19,618 bases of DNA from a virus (lineage: Duplodnaviria > Heunggongvirae > Uroviricota > Caudoviricetes). The translations under genes and the position numbers were made by a program. The DNA is taken from the IMG/VR virus record IMGVR_UViG_3300014691_000062, one strand, 5' to 3'. The number at the start of each line of letters is the position of its first letter. The first letter of the stretch is position 1. Of the stretch, positions 3,633 through 14,171 are shown piece by piece. The notes below the pieces were generated by a model, which was not told where the DNA came from, searched no databases, and saw only the letters and a list, made by a program, of their open reading frames with translations.

Positions 3633-4116
3633 CTATCTGCACTGCTCATTAATATACTTCTGGGTTCCTTCCAGTTGTTTTTGCATAGTGATCAGCCTCT
3701 CTCTGAGAGTGAAATAATCCCGTTCAGCGGTGTCTGCCAGTCGGGGGGAGGCTGCATTATCCATGCCGGAGGCGGTGGTGGCTTCACGCACTGACTGACA
3801 GACTGCTTTGATGTGCAACCGACGACGACCAGCGGCAACATCATCACGCAGAGCATCATTTTCAGCTTTCGCATCAGCTAACTCCTTCGTGTATTTTGCA
3901 TCGAGCGCAGCGACATCACGTTGGCGCACCTGCATGTCAGTAATTGCCGCGTTCGCCAGCTTCAGTTCTCTGGCATTTTTNNNNNNNNNNNNNNNNNNNN
4001 NNNNNNNNNNNNNNNNNNNNNNNNNNNNNNNNNNNNNNNNNNNNNNNNNNAGCCAATGACATGCAGACGATGATGCAGATGAGCAGAGCGGAGATAATCG
4101 CGGTTAATCTGCTCAT
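3633..4116 (-). CDS. Rz: Rz i-spanin (inner-membrane spanin subunit), interrupted by an N-run
   Basis: C-terminal part (ORF 3633..3935) matches lambda Rz by recall; N-terminus [18 protein letters not shown] is read from the ATG at 4116, which overlaps the R stop (ATGA). N-run 3981..4050 lies inside, so the length is not a multiple of 3. Confidence 0.85.
3692..3874 (-). CDS. Rz1: Rz1 o-spanin lipoprotein, embedded in Rz in the +1 frame
   Basis: 60 aa [24 protein letters not shown]…[15 protein letters not shown]…, lipobox and proline-rich body as in lambda Rz1. Confidence 0.85.
3981..4050. other. Run of 70 N (gap or masked sequence) inside Rz
   Basis: Literal n characters in the sequence. Confidence 1.
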
Positions 4117-5209: not shown

Positions 5210-6244
5210 ATGACTGCATCAGCGACCCCCACTAATATCACTCATAAGTTTATTGTTCACATTATGAACAAGGAACAACAGGGGTTAGCCACCATTATTC
5301 CTTGTCCTTCAGAAAAACCTGTTCAGCAAGCATCAAAAGACCTCTCTAACGCACTTACTGAAAGGTACTCTGGGAGAGCAGGTAAAGGATATGGGAAATT
5401 TGAAGATGACCGCGATAGTTACCCTATGGGTAATATCGTTGATGATTATTTCGTAAATAAAACACATAGTTTTTATGATACTAGTATCCGAATGATCAAT
5501 CATTTAAAAGCCAGAGCCGATGATGAATCAATGTCTACTGGTGGTTATGTAATAATTGCCCATAATGAGGTAAATGGAAATCATTATTTGATGGTTGCAA
5601 TCCTAACTTCAGCAGTTGGCTCTTCAGTCCACGATTTTGAAATTCAAGAAAGTGAATATCTAGACATTGCTAAACTTCGAGTAGCGGGACGAATTGACTT
5701 AACTGGGCGCCAGAATGGCAAAGAGAGATATATTAGCTTTCTAAAGGGGCAAAATTCAGTAGCAGGTTATTTCAAAAAGTTTTTAGGTTGCAACGATATT
5801 CTAATTGCCAAACAAGAAACAACAAAATTACGGAATGCACTTTTAGAATTTGCTACTGAAAGAGGTTTTGAACCAGAGGCACGTGAAGAGTTCCTAAATA
5901 AGGCTCATGAAAAATTAAAAAATTTAAATCGTTCTGGTGAAACTTTCGACACTCAAATTTTTGCAAACGAGATATGGCCAACTGCTCCTGAGTTGTTAGT
6001 TGAAAAGTTAACCAATGACGATCTGGAGTTCTCTGATGGGTTCGTGCCTGATGGCAACGTTATACGTGGGCTTGTTAGTTTCAAAGGAAAGTCCAAACAT
6101 TGGTCTCTGAAATTCGAGCGTGCGGCCTTGCATGATGGCAGCGTTCTTTATGATTCAGAAAACGATAAATTGATACTTACCGAGATTCCGGATACGCTAA
6201 GATCAGAGATTTTATCAGAATTAGGTGAAGAGGATGAGCAGTAA
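5210..6244 (+). CDS. YejK/NdpA-like (NA37 family) nucleoid-associated-protein homologue, cargo gene
   Basis: 344 aa; AAGGA SD 7 nt upstream of the ATG. By-eye alignment to E. coli YejK along the length ([22 protein letters not shown] / [38 protein letters not shown]…RYISFLKGQ / YLDINHADIVARIDLT…RYLTFLKGR). AT-rich relative to the phage backbone. Confidence 0.75.
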   Translation: [344 protein letters not shown]

Positions 6245-7412
6245 AAATCAGAGAACCTTCAAAGACTTAGTGACTATTTACAAGGCCGCTACATTTGCAG
6301 GTACCCTATCTGAAGCATCACTCATTCTTTCAAACGAGGAGCTCTGTGACATCATCAACGATATCACAGAGAATCCCCATGATTTTGGCATCACCCTTGA
6401 ATCTGGCAACATTGAGTTAGGCCAAACTATAACCTTACATATAACCCCCCCCAAATTACGATTGGGGCAGCTACATTTCTCTTTTAATGAGTATTTAAAA
6501 AATCCTAAAAATAGGATAAAGGAAGCCAGTAACTTCTTTATAATCGAACTTAATTATCACAACAGGGATAAAAAGTCGCCTGCTATTATATCCAAGTACA
6601 GAGATGTTTTGAGCTTAATTACTTTATTCAAAGATTGTTCTGCTTATTTAGATGAAACAAATTTTGAATTGGTATTCGTCGAATCCAACGTACTAAAAAT
6701 TCCAGTAAATTATTCTAGCGATGATCTTATGAATGTTAATGGAGATCTGATTCATAATTTGATCGCAAACTTTGCAGAAGATACGCATAAAGATCAAAAA
6801 CTTACTATTTTAGCAAGTAGTATAAAATCATCATGTGAATCTAAAACTAAAGAAACCTCTTTTTCCTTCATGTTAAGGGATTTAGGACAACTTTATGAAA
6901 GTTATCAAAAAGGATACAAAGTATTCGTTTCTGGTTTTTCTTACGAGAAAATACTAGATCAGTTACGAGTAGCCAAAATAGAAGAGATGGGGAAAATACA
7001 TAAAGTATTCAGTGACATACAAAATCAGATATTAGGTATCCCCGTCGCAACAATTATCGTTGCGACTCAAATGAAGCAGGCTAATGGTTGGGATAGTCAA
7101 GCATTAATAAACACAGCTGTAGTGTTGGGTGCATTGTTCTTCACTATTATGATTATATTTGTTCTATTTAATCAATGGCAAACTTTAACAGCAATAAATG
7201 ATGAGTTAAATCATAAAAAACAACAAGCAGAATATAACTTCAAGGCTATTTACGAAGATATAAAGGATACATTTGATAGTTTAACCACAAGATTGCTTGT
7301 TCAGAAAGTTGTTTTTGCCTCATTAGGAATTATAGTTTTATGTGGCTTATATCTTACATTTAGATTCTACTTTTTACTTACACCTTATGCTATTACATAT
7401 TTATTTAGCTGA
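6234..7412 (+). CDS. Membrane protein with a large N-terminal soluble domain and two C-terminal transmembrane helices, cargo gene
   Basis: ORF 6225..7412 (GTG); preferred ATG at 6234 with AGGTGA SD, overlapping the upstream stop by 11 nt. Hydrophobic helices ALINTAVVLGALFFTIMIIFVLF and VVFASLGIIVLCGLYLTFRFYFLL. Very AT-rich. No family recognised. Confidence 0.75.
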   Translation: MSSKNQRTFKDLVTIYKAATFAGTLSEASLILSNEELCDIINDITENPHDFGITLESGNIELGQTITLHITPPKLRLGQLHFSFNEYLKNPKNRIKEASNFFIIELNYHNRDKKSPAIISKYRDVLSLITLFKDCSAYLDETNFELVFVESNVLKIPVNYSSDDLMNVNGDLIHNLIANFAEDTHKDQKLTILASSIKSSCESKTKETSFSFMLRDLGQLYESYQKGYKVFVSGFSYEKILDQLRVAKIEEMGKIHKVFSDIQNQILGIPVATIIVATQMKQANGWDSQALINTAVVLGALFFTIMIIFVLFNQWQTLTAINDELNHKKQQAEYNFKAIYEDIKDTFDSLTTRLLVQKVVFASLGIIVLCGLYLTFRFYFLLTPYAITYLFS

Positions 7413-7436: not shown

Positions 7437-7784
7437 TTACCCATGTATTATATATATAACTGCATCAATAAATCCCAATGCAGCTTGCAACTTTTTTCTT
7501 ATAGTCCCATCAGAGCATTTTCTCTTCTTCGCAATAGTGCGTAATGAGATACCGATAACATAGTGAGCAATGATTAGCTCATATTCTTCAGGCCTATATT
7601 TACGCAACCGAGCCACACAACTGTCTATCATAATGCCTTCGTCATCATCACACTGAATCCGGGACTTTTTGCCATGAGGTAAAAGTCCCTTGAAGCCAGC
7701 GGCTACCGGTTGCCAGTCCACTCCGCTATTGTCTGAAGCAGCCCAAGCTCCCCAACGATCCATTACTTCATACATATCACGCAT
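7437..7784 (-). CDS. Late-gene antiterminator Q (QuuD / phage-82 type)
   Basis: 115 aa from the ATG at 7784 (track start 7799 is TTG); GGAGAAAG SD. Matches DLP12 QuuD by recall (MRD…RWGAWAA…AAGFKGL…KSR.QC.DDD…CSDG.I.K.LQ). Confidence 0.8.
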   Translation of the reverse strand: MRDMYEVMDRWGAWAASDNSGVDWQPVAAGFKGLLPHGKKSRIQCDDDEGIMIDSCVARLRKYRPEEYELIIAHYVIGISLRTIAKKRKCSDGTIRKKLQAALGFIDAVIYIIHG

Positions 7785-7801
7785 CAACTTTCTCCACAAA
7801 A

Positions 7802-8797
7802 TCAGGCCAGCACACCAATTGCCAGCGCACGATCGATAAAACGAAATATCAGCTCCAGCTGGGAGCCATACATCTCTTCAAATGCCACGGTATCCGCATG
7901 CAGCTCGTCGTGATGCTTTCTGCACAAAGGCAACACAAAGAGGTCATGCGCTTTTGTCCCCATTCCACCCTGACCATGGCCTATCAGGTGGTGGGGATCA
8001 TCAGCGGGCTTTCCACAACATGCACACGGCTGTGTCTTAACCCAGCGCGTGTACTTTTCATTAACCCAGCGGCGACGTTTTGGGCGTAACATAAAAGACT
8101 CCGGTGACTCCGGATCCACTTTCAGCGCCAGCACCTTTTTCGCCTTATCCTGGATGATGCTGGTGGCAGGAACCGAAGGAACAAGGTCACTTTCCCGGGT
8201 GACAGACGGCACAACAGGCTTCGGTAATCTCAGTGCCTTACGGGCTGCACTTTCCGGTAAGGCATCCGCCAGGTCATTACGAACCAGCCACCAGCACAGT
8301 TCCGGCATTGTCACAACGTGACTATCATCAAAACCGAGATCACGGCGCACAACAGATAACACCCAGCGGGCACAGTTATCCGTTGCCATTGATTCCAGCC
8401 GTTCCGTGAACTGGTCACGCAACTGGTTATCGCAGTGCCAGCACAGACGGATTGCGCCCGGCGCATGGCGCGTTGTGGTCATGTTTTCGCTGTGCCAGTC
8501 GGAGTGAGGCCACTGACAGCCTTTTTCACGAAGTAACCAGCTTTCAAGACATTCCACGCCACCAGCACGACGGATCACTGCCTCATTGCGGAACACGGCC
8601 CGAACGGCAGGATCATCCGCCAGCGGTTGTGATGCTGCCGGAACGGCACCACTGGCGAAAGATGAATAACGTTCCGGCTCAGGCTCCAGCAGGACACGCC
8701 CCTGCATAAACAGGGGCATCAGTTCTGAACCTGGTCTGAACAATACGATCCCCATACGCGGGGCAATTTCAGGGGTCAGTAGTGCTCTCACGGTCAC
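7802..8797 (-). CDS. DUF968-like protein with C-terminal Cys/His-rich (HNH-like) motif
   Basis: 331 aa; C-terminus …CACCGKPADDPHHLIGHGQGGMGTKAHDLFVLPLCRKHHDELH…; immediately upstream of Q as in other lambdoid nin regions. Start uncertain (GTG at 8797, or GTG at 8791 with GAGG 5 nt upstream). Confidence 0.6.
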   Translation of the reverse strand: MTVRALLTPEIAPRMGIVLFRPGSELMPLFMQGRVLLEPEPERYSSFASGAVPAASQPLADDPAVRAVFRNEAVIRRAGGVECLESWLLREKGCQWPHSDWHSENMTTTRHAPGAIRLCWHCDNQLRDQFTERLESMATDNCARWVLSVVRRDLGFDDSHVVTMPELCWWLVRNDLADALPESAARKALRLPKPVVPSVTRESDLVPSVPATSIIQDKAKKVLALKVDPESPESFMLRPKRRRWVNEKYTRWVKTQPCACCGKPADDPHHLIGHGQGGMGTKAHDLFVLPLCRKHHDELHADTVAFEEMYGSQLELIFRFIDRALAIGVLA

Positions 8798-8798
8798 C

Positions 8799-9608
8799 TC
8801 AATGAACGGTATCGAGCAGCTTTAACAGCTCAGGGAATCGGGATTCGAAGAAATGCGGCTGCGTCTCGCGCGGATTTGCGGGACTGGTGATGTTCTTGCC
8901 GAACATGCAGCCTTTCGCTGTCAGCGACCAGAATTTTTTGATGTTGTTAATCGCGGTACGGCTGTATCGTTCGCGTTGTTCAACGATCCCCAGCTTCACC
9001 ATCTGGTGATATGCCTGATTAGCCGTCAGGCGGATACCATACTGCTTCAGCAGTGCACTCAGCGACAGCGTGGGGCGACTTGAGCCATCGTGTGCATCAG
9101 CAGGAGCATCAATGGCATAGCGCGGTGCCAGATTCGGTAAGCCAACAGCCTCCTGGAGTTTCTGACAGGCCCCAAGCACTGAAGAGTTAGACAGGTTTAA
9201 CTCCCTGCGCATAAAGTCCAGCAGAATCACTCCAGCCTGCATCTTGTCAGCAGCCTGCCCGGATAATTTTTCCGGTGCGCTGGTTACCATATCGAAAGTA
9301 CGGATCACCTTCAGATGGAATGACGGGCTGATCCACATTGCATAGGCATACACCAGTTCCTTGCAGACATAAGTTCCCCGTTCATTTCCCCCATGAATCA
9401 CACTCACCGGGTCAACACCCAAATTCTGGGTGTTGGTCAATTCATGAACAAGTTCAACAGTTTGTTGGCTGGAAAGAAACTTTCCTGGCTCCTTGGTTCT
9501 GGCATTTGCACCAGATGCTACTGCTGCGCGATGCAGATCGTTCAGGCTGTAACGCCCATAAGCATCACGACGAACTTCAATACCATCAATGACCATCAGA
9601 TTATTCAT
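8799..9608 (-). CDS. KilA-N domain protein
   Basis: N-terminus MNNLMVIDGIEVRRDAYGRYSLNDLHRAA… from the ATG at 9608 with AAGGAG SD (track start 9641 is GTG and overlaps rusA). Confidence 0.6.
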   Translation of the reverse strand: MNNLMVIDGIEVRRDAYGRYSLNDLHRAAVASGANARTKEPGKFLSSQQTVELVHELTNTQNLGVDPVSVIHGGNERGTYVCKELVYAYAMWISPSFHLKVIRTFDMVTSAPEKLSGQAADKMQAGVILLDFMRRELNLSNSSVLGACQKLQEAVGLPNLAPRYAIDAPADAHDGSSRPTLSLSALLKQYGIRLTANQAYHQMVKLGIVEQRERYSRTAINNIKKFWSLTAKGCMFGKNITSPANPRETQPHFFESRFPELLKLLDTVH

Positions 9609-9627
9609 ACTTCGTTTCTCCTTTTGC

Positions 9628-10017
9628 TCAGGCAGCTGCACCCGCCGTTTTCTCGTACTTACTGATAGTGATCTCGACCTTCCCTTCCGGGATAACCGGT
9701 CCCCACTCCACCAGCATTCTTTTCACCTGACTGTCGTCTTCCCACACCCCCGCGTGGGTCAGGGCGTCAAACAGCGCCTTGTTATAGTTGTCCAGATCGC
9801 GGATCCGGTTATCCGGAGGAAACAACACGATCTCCACTGAAGCAGGTGCCGACGTTGGTTTCGGCAGACGACGTAGCTGCTCAACTATTGCTGCGCACGC
9901 CGCACTCTGGAATTTTCGCCCCGCCGCGCTTATCAGGCTCTTACCAGCAAACGCCCCTTTGTTGGGGTGTCGCCAGTACGTGTTCACGCTGGGCGGAAAA
10001 GGCAGAATCAGCTTCAT
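9628..10017 (-). CDS. rusA: RusA Holliday-junction resolvase
   Basis: 129 aa with the RusA signature (…PPSVNTYWRH…DLDNYNKALFDALTHAGVWEDDSQV…); ATGA overlap with the upstream gene. Confidence 0.85.
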   Translation of the reverse strand: MKLILPFPPSVNTYWRHPNKGAFAGKSLISAAGRKFQSAACAAIVEQLRRLPKPTSAPASVEIVLFPPDNRIRDLDNYNKALFDALTHAGVWEDDSQVKRMLVEWGPVIPEGKVEITISKYEKTAGAAA

Positions 10018-10340
10018 ACTTTCAGGCCCCTCTCATGTAACCAGTGGGCTGCACGCAGCCTGGCGTTTTCCTCACCGGCAAGCAGTGAGCGGATAATCCC
10101 GACCGCCTCGCTGTCGTCGTCCTTCACCGCGGTATGAAGCGTTATCCCCCGGGCCACGCCACGCTTTATCGTGATGACGCCTTTTTTCTCCAGCGCACGA
10201 AGATGCTCCACCGCTGCATTCACCGAACGGTATCCCAGCATGGTTGCCACCTCCTGATTGGTTGGCGGGAAACCACGTTCTTTCTGATAAGAAATCAGCA
10301 TATCCAGCACCTGCTGCTGGCATTGAGTTAACGTCGTCAT
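10014..10340 (-). CDS. LexA N-terminal DNA-binding-domain protein lacking the S24 peptidase domain
   Basis: 108 aa; first ~70 residues align with the LexA winged HTH (QQQVLDMLISYQKERGFPPTNQEVATMLGYRSVNAAVEHLRALEKKGVI vs LexA RQQEVFDLIRDH…[34 protein letters not shown]). ATGA overlaps on both sides. Confidence 0.7.
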   Translation of the reverse strand: MTTLTQCQQQVLDMLISYQKERGFPPTNQEVATMLGYRSVNAAVEHLRALEKKGVITIKRGVARGITLHTAVKDDDSEAVGIIRSLLAGEENARLRAAHWLHERGLKV

Positions 10341-10990
10341 GCCGCCATCTCCCTGACCAGTTTTTCCGCCTGCTGACGAACCTGCTCCAGAAACGCCTCA
10401 CCACATGCCTCAAGTTCATCGCGCCCGATGTAGCTGATTGCCGGTCCCTTCCAGGTCTTGTCGAAAACAGCAATAGCACCAGCGAAGAAAGCGCCTGTCG
10501 GCACCTGCTTCTCATCCTTCGGGATAAACCAGGCAGGCAGTTCAAAACCAATACGCCCGCGAATAAAAGCAATATGATCTGCATCTTCCGGCCACCACAC
10601 TTCGCTGGTGGCAGCTTTGATCAGGAAAACATAGCGCCCGCCCTTATCACGCATGGCACTGGCATGTTTCATGATGTAACGCATGCCGGTGATGTATTGC
10701 CCCTCATGCTGACTGGCGCGGCTGTATGGGGGATTACCAAAGGCAGCACCTTTTAGCTCCGCAAGACGTTCTGACCAGTCATGCGCCAGCGCGTTGTCTT
10801 CCGCCGTGTAATACGCAGCACATTTGGCGTTATCACCGTCAGTGAACAGATCCAGAACAAACGGGCCAAACAGGGTGTTAATTCCCCAGAAAATGTTGTC
10901 CGGCGTGCGCCACTGATCGCCCACTTCCTTCAGTTCATGGGCTGGTTTGTTCCGCAGTTCCACCAGCGCCTGGCAATATTTATTACTCAT
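10337..10990 (-). CDS. Phage DNA N6-adenine methyltransferase (Dam-like orphan MTase)
   Basis: NPPY motif (AFGNPPYS); preferred ATG at 10990 shares one nt with the upstream stop (TAATG); track start 11023 is GTG. Confidence 0.8.
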   Translation of the reverse strand: MSNKYCQALVELRNKPAHELKEVGDQWRTPDNIFWGINTLFGPFVLDLFTDGDNAKCAAYYTAEDNALAHDWSERLAELKGAAFGNPPYSRASQHEGQYITGMRYIMKHASAMRDKGGRYVFLIKAATSEVWWPEDADHIAFIRGRIGFELPAWFIPKDEKQVPTGAFFAGAIAVFDKTWKGPAISYIGRDELEACGEAFLEQVRQQAEKLVREMAA

Positions 10991-11478
10991 TAAGCCCCCA
11001 CGTAATTCCCTGACAGATACCACTCTTCACCCGATGCAGCGCGCTTGCTGCTTTTCTGTAAGCACTGCTCACGACGCGCCAGAAAATTGTTTCGTTCTGG
11101 CTGGGAGTGGCTTTCACGGAATGCCGCCATCCACACCGTTGCAGCACGACGGTATAGGCCCCTGGACTCCAGTTCTTCAGCCTGGCGGGTCAGGCACAAA
11201 ATCACCCGTGGATCGTTAGTGCCGACATAGAAATTGCGCACAGGTCTGGTTTCACGAACTGGTTGTGGTTCCGGCTCCTGCGCTCTCTCAGTCAGGCGCG
11301 GGAAATGTCTGCGTGTATCCCCTTCACAACGGTGAGCCACACGCCCACTCTGACGTAACTTGCTTGCTGACTGCAGAACGCGCTGCCGTGAGTAACCTGC
11401 AAAAGCATCCGCAATATCTCCGGAAGTACAGCCCGGATGGGCTTCAATGAATTTCTGAACTTCATTCAAAAGACTCAT
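10990..11478 (-). CDS. Hypothetical protein, possibly PerC-like
   Basis: About 162 aa; C-terminal …GLYRRAATVWMAAF… is reminiscent of PerC/Pch-type regulators. Weak assignment. Confidence 0.45.
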   Translation of the reverse strand: MSLLNEVQKFIEAHPGCTSGDIADAFAGYSRQRVLQSASKLRQSGRVAHRCEGDTRRHFPRLTERAQEPEPQPVRETRPVRNFYVGTNDPRVILCLTRQAEELESRGLYRRAATVWMAAFRESHSQPERNNFLARREQCLQKSSKRAASGEEWYLSGNYVGA

Positions 11479-11480
11479 GC

Positions 11481-12313
11481 TCACCCCCTGAATCCTGCCG
11501 GGATCTGGCTGTAGTCCACGTTGTCGTAACTGGATTTGAAATACGGGTCTTCGCGTTTTTCTGTGTATGTGCTGATGGACGGCGATAAGCGCAGGGAAAG
11601 CTCATCCCATTTTTCCCGCAGCTTCGACGGGCTGAGCACGTTACGGCACCAGAACGGATCGCGGCTGACGCGGCTGTACATCTCGCAGATTTGTTTGTGA
11701 GTACGACCATCCTGCACACACATCAGGCGAATTTCGTTTGCCCAGGCTGTCCAGTTCGGTTCTTTGGGACGAACCACCTCGCCGTCACATTCGGCGGCCT
11801 GCTCGTACAGGGCGATGANNNNNNNNNNTGCTGGGTTGGGAAACCGCCGGAACGAGAAGGTTTTTTATCTGACGGATCATGTTTTGATTTTACTGACGGA
11901 TCCCCGCCAGATTCTGACGGGTGAAAACCCGCTTTTTTGCCAGATTTCGACGCATCAAATTTTGACGGGTCAGATTTTGATGCGTCAGATTTTGACGGGT
12001 CAGAATCTGACAGTTGAGAAAATGCCGCTGCCTGAAGCTTCGCAACGTTAAGCTGATAAACATTCGACGCATTGCGGTTACCCTGGCGACGCGCCTTACG
12101 CGTTAACCAGCCTTCTGCTTCCAGCCGTGCGATAGCCGTTCTGACGGTACTCATCCCCGCGCCAATCTGGCGGGCAATGGTTTCAATTGATGGCCAGCAC
12201 ACACCTTCGTCATTACTGAAATCAGCCAGGCGGGCCATAATTGCCACGCTGGATAATTTCATGCCTGATGCAGCGCAACCATCCCATACATAGCCGGTTA
12301 ATTTAGTGCTCAT
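11481..12313 (-). CDS. Replication initiator (lambda O-like organisation, HTH N-domain) with the origin iterons inside the gene; interrupted by an N-run
   Basis: N-terminal HTH domain (…WPSIETIARQIGAGMSTVRTAIARLEAEGWL…), then a repetitive SKSDASKSDPSKFD linker encoded by iterons; C-terminal part is ORF 11481..11777. N-run 11819..11828 inside; GAGGT SD. Confidence 0.7.
11819..11828. other. Run of 10 N inside the replication gene
   Basis: Literal n characters in the sequence. Confidence 1.
11866..12012. repeat. Origin-like iteron array
   Basis: About 8 tandem copies of a ~12-15 bp unit built on TGACGG (cagattttgacgggt, cagattttgatgcgt, attctgacgggt, tactgacggatc …). Confidence 0.7.
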
Positions 12314-13544: not shown

Positions 13545-14171
13545 ATGGAAACGGTTGGTCAGCGTATAAAAGCTCTGAGAAGAGTTACCGGAACGTCCCA
13601 GAAAGAATTGGGTAAATTTTGTGGAGTAAGCGACGTTGCTGTGGGGTACTGGGAGAAAGACATCAATACCCCTGGTGGGGAGGCACTTTCGAAATTAGCG
13701 AAGTTCTTCAATACGTCAATAGATTACATTCTTTATGGTGCTGAGTTTGAAGGCAAACTCGTCACAAACATGCGCAGAGTTCCTGTAATATCGTGGGTTC
13801 AGGCTGGGCAGTTTACTGAATGCAGGGCAGCAGAAGTGTTTAGTGAAGTGGACAAGTGGGTAGATACATCATTAAAGATTGGTGATAACTCATTTGCATT
13901 AGAGGTTAAAGGTGACTCCATGACTAACCCTAATGGCCTCCCAACAATACCAGAAGGCGCAACAGTGATTGTAGATCCAGATGCAGAACCTCGTCATGGA
14001 AAAATAGTCATCGCTCGACTTGATGGAACAAACGAAGCTACAGTAAAAAAATTAGTCATCGATGGCCCTCAAAAGTTTTTAGTGCCATTAAATCCTCGGT
14101 ATCCCAACATCCCTATCAATGGTAATTGCCTTATCATTGGTGTAGTCAAAGGAGTTCAATACGAACTCTAA
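13545..14171 (+). CDS. cI: CI-type prophage repressor (HTH plus S24 LexA-like autopeptidase domain)
   Basis: 208 aa; HTH …GTSQKELGKFCGVSDVAVGYWEKD…; S24 motifs GDSM and …ATVKKL…; overall similarity to P22 C2 / lambda CI by recall. Confidence 0.9.
   Translation: METVGQRIKALRRVTGTSQKELGKFCGVSDVAVGYWEKDINTPGGEALSKLAKFFNTSIDYILYGAEFEGKLVTNMRRVPVISWVQAGQFTECRAAEVFSEVDKWVDTSLKIGDNSFALEVKGDSMTNPNGLPTIPEGATVIVDPDAEPRHGKIVIARLDGTNEATVKKLVIDGPQKFLVPLNPRYPNIPINGNCLIIGVVKGVQYEL

Follow-up and report, generated by a model that had tools for sequence, protein, structure and literature searches.

GIL01, a tectivirus of Bacillus, encodes gp6, a truncated LexA homologue of 66 aa whose binding to GaCACAnnTGTGaC at -43.5 of the late promoter P3 activates this promoter (PMC6182141). 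Here, we describe a 108-aa protein of an Escherichia coli prophage that resembles gp6 in several respects: it is phage-encoded, it contains essentially only the DNA-binding domain (DBD) of LexA, and it is encoded among the early genes of a temperate phage with links to the SOS response. Its gene (10014..10340, minus strand, ATG start), referred to as the LexA-DBD gene, lies in a stretch of 19,618 nucleotides, the IMG/VR virus record IMGVR_UViG_3300014691_000062. This whole stretch—the window—represents the early, lysis and packaging part of the prophage, whose integration site adjoins tRNA-Thr/proA. On the other side, gp6 originates from a Gram-positive tectivirus and bears no C-terminal hairpin, whereas the window protein carries an extra 40-residue helical tail; and gp6 recognizes its own palindrome and activates transcription. 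BLASTP yields no alignment between both proteins at E<=100 and they share the Pfam domain only, hence pointing to independent captures of LexA.

E. coli LexA itself (TIGR00498; PDB 1LEA, 1JHH, and 3JSO) has the homologous N-terminal winged helix in common with the window protein. The latter lacks the S24 peptidase/dimerization domain, and hence the Ser119/Lys156 dyad and the RecA-docking surface; a two-helix hairpin stands in its place. We propose—at a probability of roughly two in five—that the LexA-DBD protein is a RecA-insensitive LexA surrogate that acts on SOS boxes in trans. Under this proposal, it would resemble the LexA(Ind-) mutants (G85D and S119A; PDB 1JHF and 1JHH) in resisting RecA and holding the SOS regulon closed. 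These mutants keep the whole C-terminal domain and the dimer interface, whereas the window protein has neither.

The plasmid protein PsiB and DinI are mobile-element modulators of the SOS response. GIL01 gp7 is a further one (PMC6182141). The outcome proposed here would be the same as for these three proteins, namely a host SOS response that is damped or reshaped for the benefit of the mobile element. They act on LexA or RecA by protein–protein contacts and are unrelated in sequence, whereas the window protein would occupy the operators directly.

Winged helix, recognition helix, and helical tail

The initial annotation had assigned a LexA winged-helix domain to the first ~70 residues, and this is borne out by three approaches. 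In a Pfam profile search, residues 1 to 65 cover the entire LexA_DNA_bind model (PF01726; positions 1–65 of 65) with E=2.9e-19 and 69 bits (cutoff 23.7). The BLASTP alignment with E. coli LexA spans 90 residues at 43% identity (E=1e-21). An AlphaFold2 (AF2) model of the 108-aa protein, with a mean predicted local distance difference test score of 82, displays three helices and a two-stranded wing and superimposes on chain B of the LexA–DNA crystal structure 3JSO with a root-mean-square deviation of 1.0 Å over 68 residues at 50% identity (Foldseek). The winged helix-turn-helix comprises residues 1 to 68 (10137..10340, minus strand), with helices at 6–22, 28–35, and 40–52 and strands at 56–58 and 66–68. 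The TIGR00498 (lexA) model is matched by residues 1 to 91 at its positions 1–91 of 203 only, with 70.8 bits under the equivalog cutoff of 110.95; hence, only the N-terminal half of LexA is present.

The absence of the S24 autocleavage domain, also claimed initially, holds as well: Peptidase_S24 (PF00717) has no match in the 108-aa protein, which stops where the overlapping rusA begins. A conserved Ala-Gly autocleavage site was not found either. A88-G89 aligns with A84-G85 of LexA, but G89 is replaced by Asn in several close relatives (Citrobacter variants), the motif is missing from distant relatives, and the cleavage-site region is predicted to be helical. The idea that this site is kept as a trans-substrate for S24 proteases was therefore ruled out.

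The residues of helix III of LexA that contact DNA are S39, N41, A42, E44, and E45 (PMC3091678). In the window protein, the recognition helix SVNAAVEHLRAL (residues 39–50; 10191..10226, minus strand) retains four of these five—S39, N41, A42, and E45—with Val in place of E44. Over its whole length, this helix is 9/12 (75%) identical to that of E. coli LexA, against 46% for the remainder of the domain. Helix 3 of gp6 shares 4/12 residues with E. coli LexA, which is not the LexA of its own host. The wing (residues 59–67; 10140..10166, minus strand) reads KRGVARGIT as compared with VSGASRGIR in LexA, with G61, R64, G65, and I66 kept.

C-terminal to the domain, a low-confidence linker (71–75) leads into a two-helix hairpin that is predicted by AF2 for residues 75 to 103 (helices 75–87 and 93–103; 10032..10118, minus strand). 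This element was missed in the initial annotation. Its length and hydrophobic pattern are kept in relatives down to ~40% identity. No Pfam family was found for the tail (residues 70–108), whose sole hit is a sub-threshold one to NIL, and Foldseek against the PDB matched the winged helix only and left the tail unmatched. LexA requires dimerization for DNA binding (PMC3159453), and the hairpin possibly constitutes a substitute dimerization element. It is the obvious candidate for holding two copies together. The contacts between the two wings, and not the C-terminal domain, are reportedly what sets the half-site spacing in the structure of LexA on DNA. Therefore, a domain-only protein could keep the N8 spacing if two copies are held together.

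A different route to two domains per operator might be represented by many short proteins (140–250 aa) of the representative library, among them P0128, P0129, P0135, P0138, P0139, and P0141. In these, the profile matches in two separate stretches, and they appear to bear tandem LexA DNA-binding domains without an S24 domain.

Distribution and genomic setting of the gene

Of 5426 complete E. coli genomes, 2233 (~41%) carry the 327-bp gene, with up to four copies per genome. Neither this commonness nor the existing annotation had been noted initially: RefSeq lists the protein and its relatives as "LexA family transcriptional regulator" (WP_000210164), and it matches PHROG 362 ("transcriptional repressor") with E=1.4e-59, residues 1 to 108 covering profile positions 1–106 of 106. 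Hence, the structural finding is right and is already contained in annotation databases, and the gene is not new as an object. These names are homology-based labels; full-text literature searches returned no functional or experimental work on the enterobacterial family. We regard the family as a new, uncharacterized addition to a small class, the truncated LexA homologues encoded by phages, set apart by its helical tail and its host-like recognition helix.

The gene corresponds to orf42 of SfV and is also carried by SfII, SfIV, mEp460, the cdtI phage, and many Stx2/Stx2c phages; several phages and genomes encode proteins that are 100% identical. More distant relatives are found in phages and prophages of Citrobacter, Salmonella, Hafnia, Klebsiella, Edwardsiella, and Proteus, and down to ~40% identity they keep the domain, tail, length, and genomic position. 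A dN/dS (ratio of nonsynonymous to synonymous substitution rates) of ~0.05 over 51 alleles points to purifying selection, although the alleles had been selected for high protein identity and dN is therefore biased toward low values. The matches of a profile search of genome contigs were confined to chromosomal lexA genes of bacteria such as Halomonas. A role in a defense system was considered and rejected, PADLOC giving no more than a marginal hit of winged helix-turn-helix type.

Immediately downstream of the gene, rusA is found in nearly every lineage examined, often followed by KilA-N or Rha/ANT, DUF968, and an antiterminator (Q or P22 gp24 type). This results in a conserved module of LexA-DBD—RusA—(KilA-N/ANT)—DUF968—antiterminator. 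Upstream, a DNA methyltransferase gene is frequently the neighbor, and its family varies (Dam, C5, or D12 type). In the window, the gene lies between the replication genes and Q (7437–7799), on the same strand and within the early-right operon, and is hence located in the nin region as initially assigned.

The gene shares a 4-nt ATGA with each of its neighbors: the stop codon of the methyltransferase gene overlaps its start at 10337–10340, and its own stop codon overlaps the start of rusA at 10014–10017. An AGGGAG Shine-Dalgarno sequence (10349..10354, minus strand), read off the sequence within the 3′ end of the methyltransferase gene, precedes the ATG by 8 nt. The overlaps themselves agree with the initial description; the translational coupling to both flanking genes that had been stated along with them is a probable consequence of this arrangement.

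A possible RecA-insensitive surrogate and its alternatives

If the protein is such a surrogate, it would belong to the delayed-early products of the rightward early operon, being encoded in the chain PerC-like—Dam—LexA-DBD—RusA, and its appearance would require either inactivation of the S24-type CI repressor or infection. Its recognition helix would still read a CTGT-type half-site, and two copies might assemble on an SOS-box-like palindrome, held by the C-terminal hairpin and the wing contacts. Activated RecA would be unable to remove the protein because it bears neither an S24 domain nor a RecA-docking surface. SOS-box promoters could in this way be closed again while host LexA is being destroyed, be they chromosomal promoters of the host, promoters of co-resident mobile elements or, in sister phages, those of the phage itself.

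The proposed timing follows from the position of the gene. A promoter scan found no promoter near the LexA-DBD gene; one predicted upstream of dam in the SfV record was rejected as its own promoter, being weak there and further degraded in the window. With the gene in the early-right operon and no convincing promoter of its own, its expression is therefore expected after CI inactivation or infection and not in a quiescent lysogen. This makes it unlikely that the protein tunes the SOS response of an uninduced lysogen, which had been one of the initial suggestions, and favors an action during host LexA cleavage.

A search for SOS boxes in related loci gave the following picture. For scoring, a position weight matrix (PWM) derived from a set of 20 SOS boxes of E. 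coli was used. Among 80 viral contigs that encode a protein of at least 98% identity, 41 carry at least one box scoring like the best E. coli operators, with 52 boxes in total. At least three distinct modules harbor these boxes, namely the interior of a 230-aa cI, the interval from rusA to kilA-N, and the first codons of a methyltransferase gene that follows Q. As a control, a comparable region of 80 lambda-type, ninG-centered loci—none of which encodes the protein—yielded a single locus (1/80) with one weak box. Within a set of GenBank phages, the LexA-DBD gene is present in all 13 records with an SOS-box-bearing cI and in all five with a box upstream of kilA-N. Four distant relatives—Edwardsiella phage EPP-1, L008, L171, and L174—have the gene in a unit transcribed from a promoter that a strong SOS box overlaps; an intrinsic terminator precedes this unit in L008.

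The individual boxes can be described as follows. The cI-internal box is a perfect one, TACTGTTTTTACATACAGTA or TACTGTTTTTATATACAGTA (PWM 25.8–27.2), and is positioned between the HTH (helix-turn-helix) and S24 parts of the gene of the 230-aa CI-type repressor, for example at 546–565 of locus L149 and also in L090, L095, L166, and others (cI of the SfII, mEp460, and Stx2a_1447 type). The second box, TACTGTATTTATGAACAGTG, is found at L149 5765–5784 (SfIV/PhiR49_1 type) in a 150-bp gap between rusA and the KilA-N gene, which suggests a LexA-controlled KilA-N protein as a possible antirepressor. In the window, the rusA and KilA-N genes abut, and this gap box is absent. The third, TACTGTAAAAATAAACAGTG, at L166 8921–8940 and in SfV (L259) at 34170–34189, covers codons 3 to 9 of an N6/N4 DNA methyltransferase gene between Q and the holin gene. 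In L174 (4242–4597), two adjacent boxes (26.1 and 17.6) are followed by a 95-aa open reading frame (ORF) that matches RecA_C (PF21096), then by a 77-aa ORF and the LexA-DBD gene, so that fragments of both SOS regulators may be combined in one LexA-controlled phage unit.

What counts for a surrogate is hence the 9/12 identity of helix 3—gp6, with its altered specificity, reaches only 4/12—together with the kept wing residues, the conserved hairpin, the SOS-box-rich loci with a near-identical gene, the box-bearing promoters of EPP-1, L008, L171, and L174, the low dN/dS, and the frequency among genomes.

A number of observations weigh against it. An exact CTGT-N8-ACAG is absent from the window, where one-mismatch sites occur at chance level (9 vs 6.75 expected) and the best PWM score of 11.3 is within the range of shuffled sequences (mean shuffle maximum 10.9). 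The sister prophage of strain Z0117EC0116, which shares a 1.6-kb stretch of 99.9% identity with the window in the same chromosomal setting, has no SOS box in its early and structural regions either. Therefore, any SOS-box target of this copy lies in trans, and the initial proposal of an action on phage promoters fails for this prophage as far as SOS boxes are concerned. The enrichment of boxes in related loci is confounded by shared lineage, as boxes and gene come from one pool of related phages. Phage Eeyore bears a cI-internal SOS box and no LexA-DBD gene; hence, the boxes are first of all sites for host LexA. For the box in the post-Q methyltransferase gene, which sits on the path of late transcription, a repressor that cannot be removed would seem counterproductive. 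At the protein level, the contact residue E44 is Val here and non-acidic across the whole tail-bearing family. Two relatives, P0134 and P0143, are encoded behind perfect SOS boxes, yet their recognition helices (SQNTVFIHLRSL and SPYAAYEHLRSL) have diverged, P0134 with 5/12 and P0143 with 8/12 residues identical to LexA and, in P0143, Tyr in place of N41. These boxes are better explained by control through host LexA; the divergence speaks against autoregulation in both relatives and suggests that specificity drifts in parts of the family. Lastly, gp6—the only characterized truncated phage LexA homologue—is an activator with its own operator. Taken together, the initial suggestion that SOS boxes are occupied without RecA cleavage is plausible, with four of five contact residues and the boxes of related loci on one side and the E44 replacement and Eeyore on the other.

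The gp6 precedent at P3 (PMC6182141) leads to another explanation, which we consider possible and yet rather doubtful: the captured LexA fold might have been retuned to a non-SOS phage operator and activate or repress a phage promoter, for example that of late genes, of accessory genes, or of the methyltransferase–RusA–DUF968 genes. The replaced E44, the drift of helix 3 in several branches of the family, and the lack of an SOS box in the window all fit such a phage transcription factor, as does its place in the early operon upstream of Q, which resembles that of gp6. Nevertheless, no candidate operator was found in the window, and CTGT/ACAG palindromes at other spacings are neither present in regulatory regions nor conserved between loci. 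Moreover, helix 3 is much nearer to host LexA than that of gp6, and the gene keeps a constant sequence (at least 95% identity) next to variable immunity, replication, and post-Q modules, which is awkward for a single cis site. The near-constant company of RusA—directly downstream in almost all lineages down to ~40% identity—and the methyltransferase that is often directly upstream with overlapping start and stop codons might instead indicate that the protein is no transcription factor but a DNA-binding accessory of these DNA-transaction genes, for example a subunit that controls or targets the methyltransferase, RusA, or DUF968. This is unlikely: the upstream neighbor varies, with small ORFs or a replication protein in some cases, RusA is separated from the gene or missing in Edwardsiella EPP-1 and Klebsiella ST846, and Eeyore possesses methyltransferase, Ant, DUF968, and Q without the LexA-DBD gene. 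In addition, winged helices of the LexA type are known only as sequence-specific transcription factors, and the adjacency of RusA would be explained equally well if a shutdown of the LexA-controlled ruvAB makes a phage resolvase useful.

The same DNA-reading residues would also serve a protein that opposes LexA, in which a weak or non-blocking occupant of SOS boxes displaces host LexA and raises SOS expression or prophage induction; the loss of the C-terminal dimerization domain of LexA could indeed render binding weaker and non-repressive. Such a competitor is very unlikely, as repression is expected from any occupant of SOS boxes, given their overlap with core promoter elements, the conserved hairpin speaks for a stable oligomer, and a precedent is lacking. 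Finally, the protein looks like a LexA cut shortly after the cleavage-site region, with "LLAGEE" aligning with "VAAGEP" of LexA, and one could think of a decaying, functionless remnant of a captured lexA. This explanation is practically untenable and already contradicted by the conservation data: besides the low dN/dS in its biased sample, the ORF is intact in all of the 2233 E. coli genomes counted above, relatives of ~40% identity keep length, tail, and position, and the gene has a good Shine-Dalgarno sequence and overlapping codons.

Structurally, there is nothing surprising about this gene, and it is its commonness and its link to SOS and Stx phages that make it of moderate interest. If the protein occupies SOS boxes, many lysogens of E. 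coli, Shigella, and Stx phages would turn the SOS response off again during induction, with a bearing on mutagenesis, on the antibiotic-triggered induction of Stx phages, on the release of colicins, and on the outcome of competition among prophages that share a cell. The protein would then also be a natural LexA(Ind-) reagent. In its widest form, the surrogate proposal would mean that a prophage-made, RecA-proof LexA is encoded in ~41% of complete E. coli genomes and re-silences the SOS regulon upon prophage induction, which we regard as doubtful. If this was true, error-prone polymerases, SulA, colicin and toxin genes, SOS-triggered antirepressors of rival prophages, and ruvAB would be among the re-silenced functions—the loss of ruvAB explaining why RusA always travels with the LexA-DBD gene—and phages would exert an unrecognized, widespread layer of control over the DNA-damage response and the competition between co-resident prophages. 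If the protein is gp6-like, the LexA DNA-binding domain would have been captured and retuned independently in Gram-negative prophages of siphovirus and myovirus type and in Gram-positive tectiviruses. Either way, a very common gene bears a homology-based name only.

Neighboring genes and further observations

On the minus strand, the gene order in the window is CII-like, replication protein, PerC-like, Dam, LexA-DBD, RusA, KilA-N, DUF968/HNH-like, and Q, followed by the lysis genes and the terminase. The PerC-like (YfdN) protein (10990..11484; PF06069 and the RefSeq annotation of the sister prophage), the phage Dam-type N6-adenine methyltransferase (10337..11023; PF05869, E=1.1e-45), the LexA-DBD protein, and the RusA Holliday-junction resolvase (9628..10017; PF05866 and synteny) are encoded by a chain of four overlapping genes at 9628–11484 (minus strand), which suggests that their products are tightly co-expressed. 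At the PerC-like/Dam junction, the overlap amounts to 1 base on the RefSeq coordinates of the sister prophage and to 34 nt with the longest-ORF start of the window. Further along the same strand, the KilA-N domain protein (8799..9641; PF04383), the DUF968/HNH-like protein (7802..8797; PF06147, E=8e-81, and synteny), a member of the conserved module, and the antiterminator Q (7437..7799; PF06530) follow, with the latter marking the end of the nin-type region. The plus strand encodes the CI repressor of the prophage (13545..14171), whose HTH_3 (PF01381) and Peptidase_S24 (PF00717) domains identify it as a RecA-cleavable switch and show that the immunity of this phage is independent of the LexA-DBD protein.

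Beyond the window, SOS boxes were also seen next to other genes. In Eeyore (L258 1666–2493), DinI-like and UmuD-like accessory genes are flanked by SOS boxes with scores of 24.1 and 19.2; the boxes of this phage show that the group uses host LexA control widely even without a LexA-DBD gene. In the sister genome, the box AACTGTATAAAACAACAGTT (L260 3013–3032; score 20.0) lies in another mobile element ~20 kb away from the prophage, where it adjoins genes for TOPRIM/DUF927 primase-like and ejection proteins, and exemplifies a trans target to which the protein would have access in this cell.

Between Q and the holin gene, the window holds two genes on the opposite strand (5210–7412, plus strand). 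One encodes a homologue of the 37-kDa nucleoid-associated protein (PF04245, E=8e-69) and the other a 395-aa protein that matches nothing in Pfam or PADLOC; the sister prophage bears different cargo at this site (TIGR04255 family). A sigma-70-like match of 11/12 at 7181–7152 (minus strand) may represent a late promoter. Runs of N—masked or unsequenced positions—occur at 325–393 in the terminase large-subunit region, at 3981–4050 in the Rz/endolysin region, and at 11819–11828, where the run breaks the ORF of the replication protein into 11481–11777 and 11723–12313.

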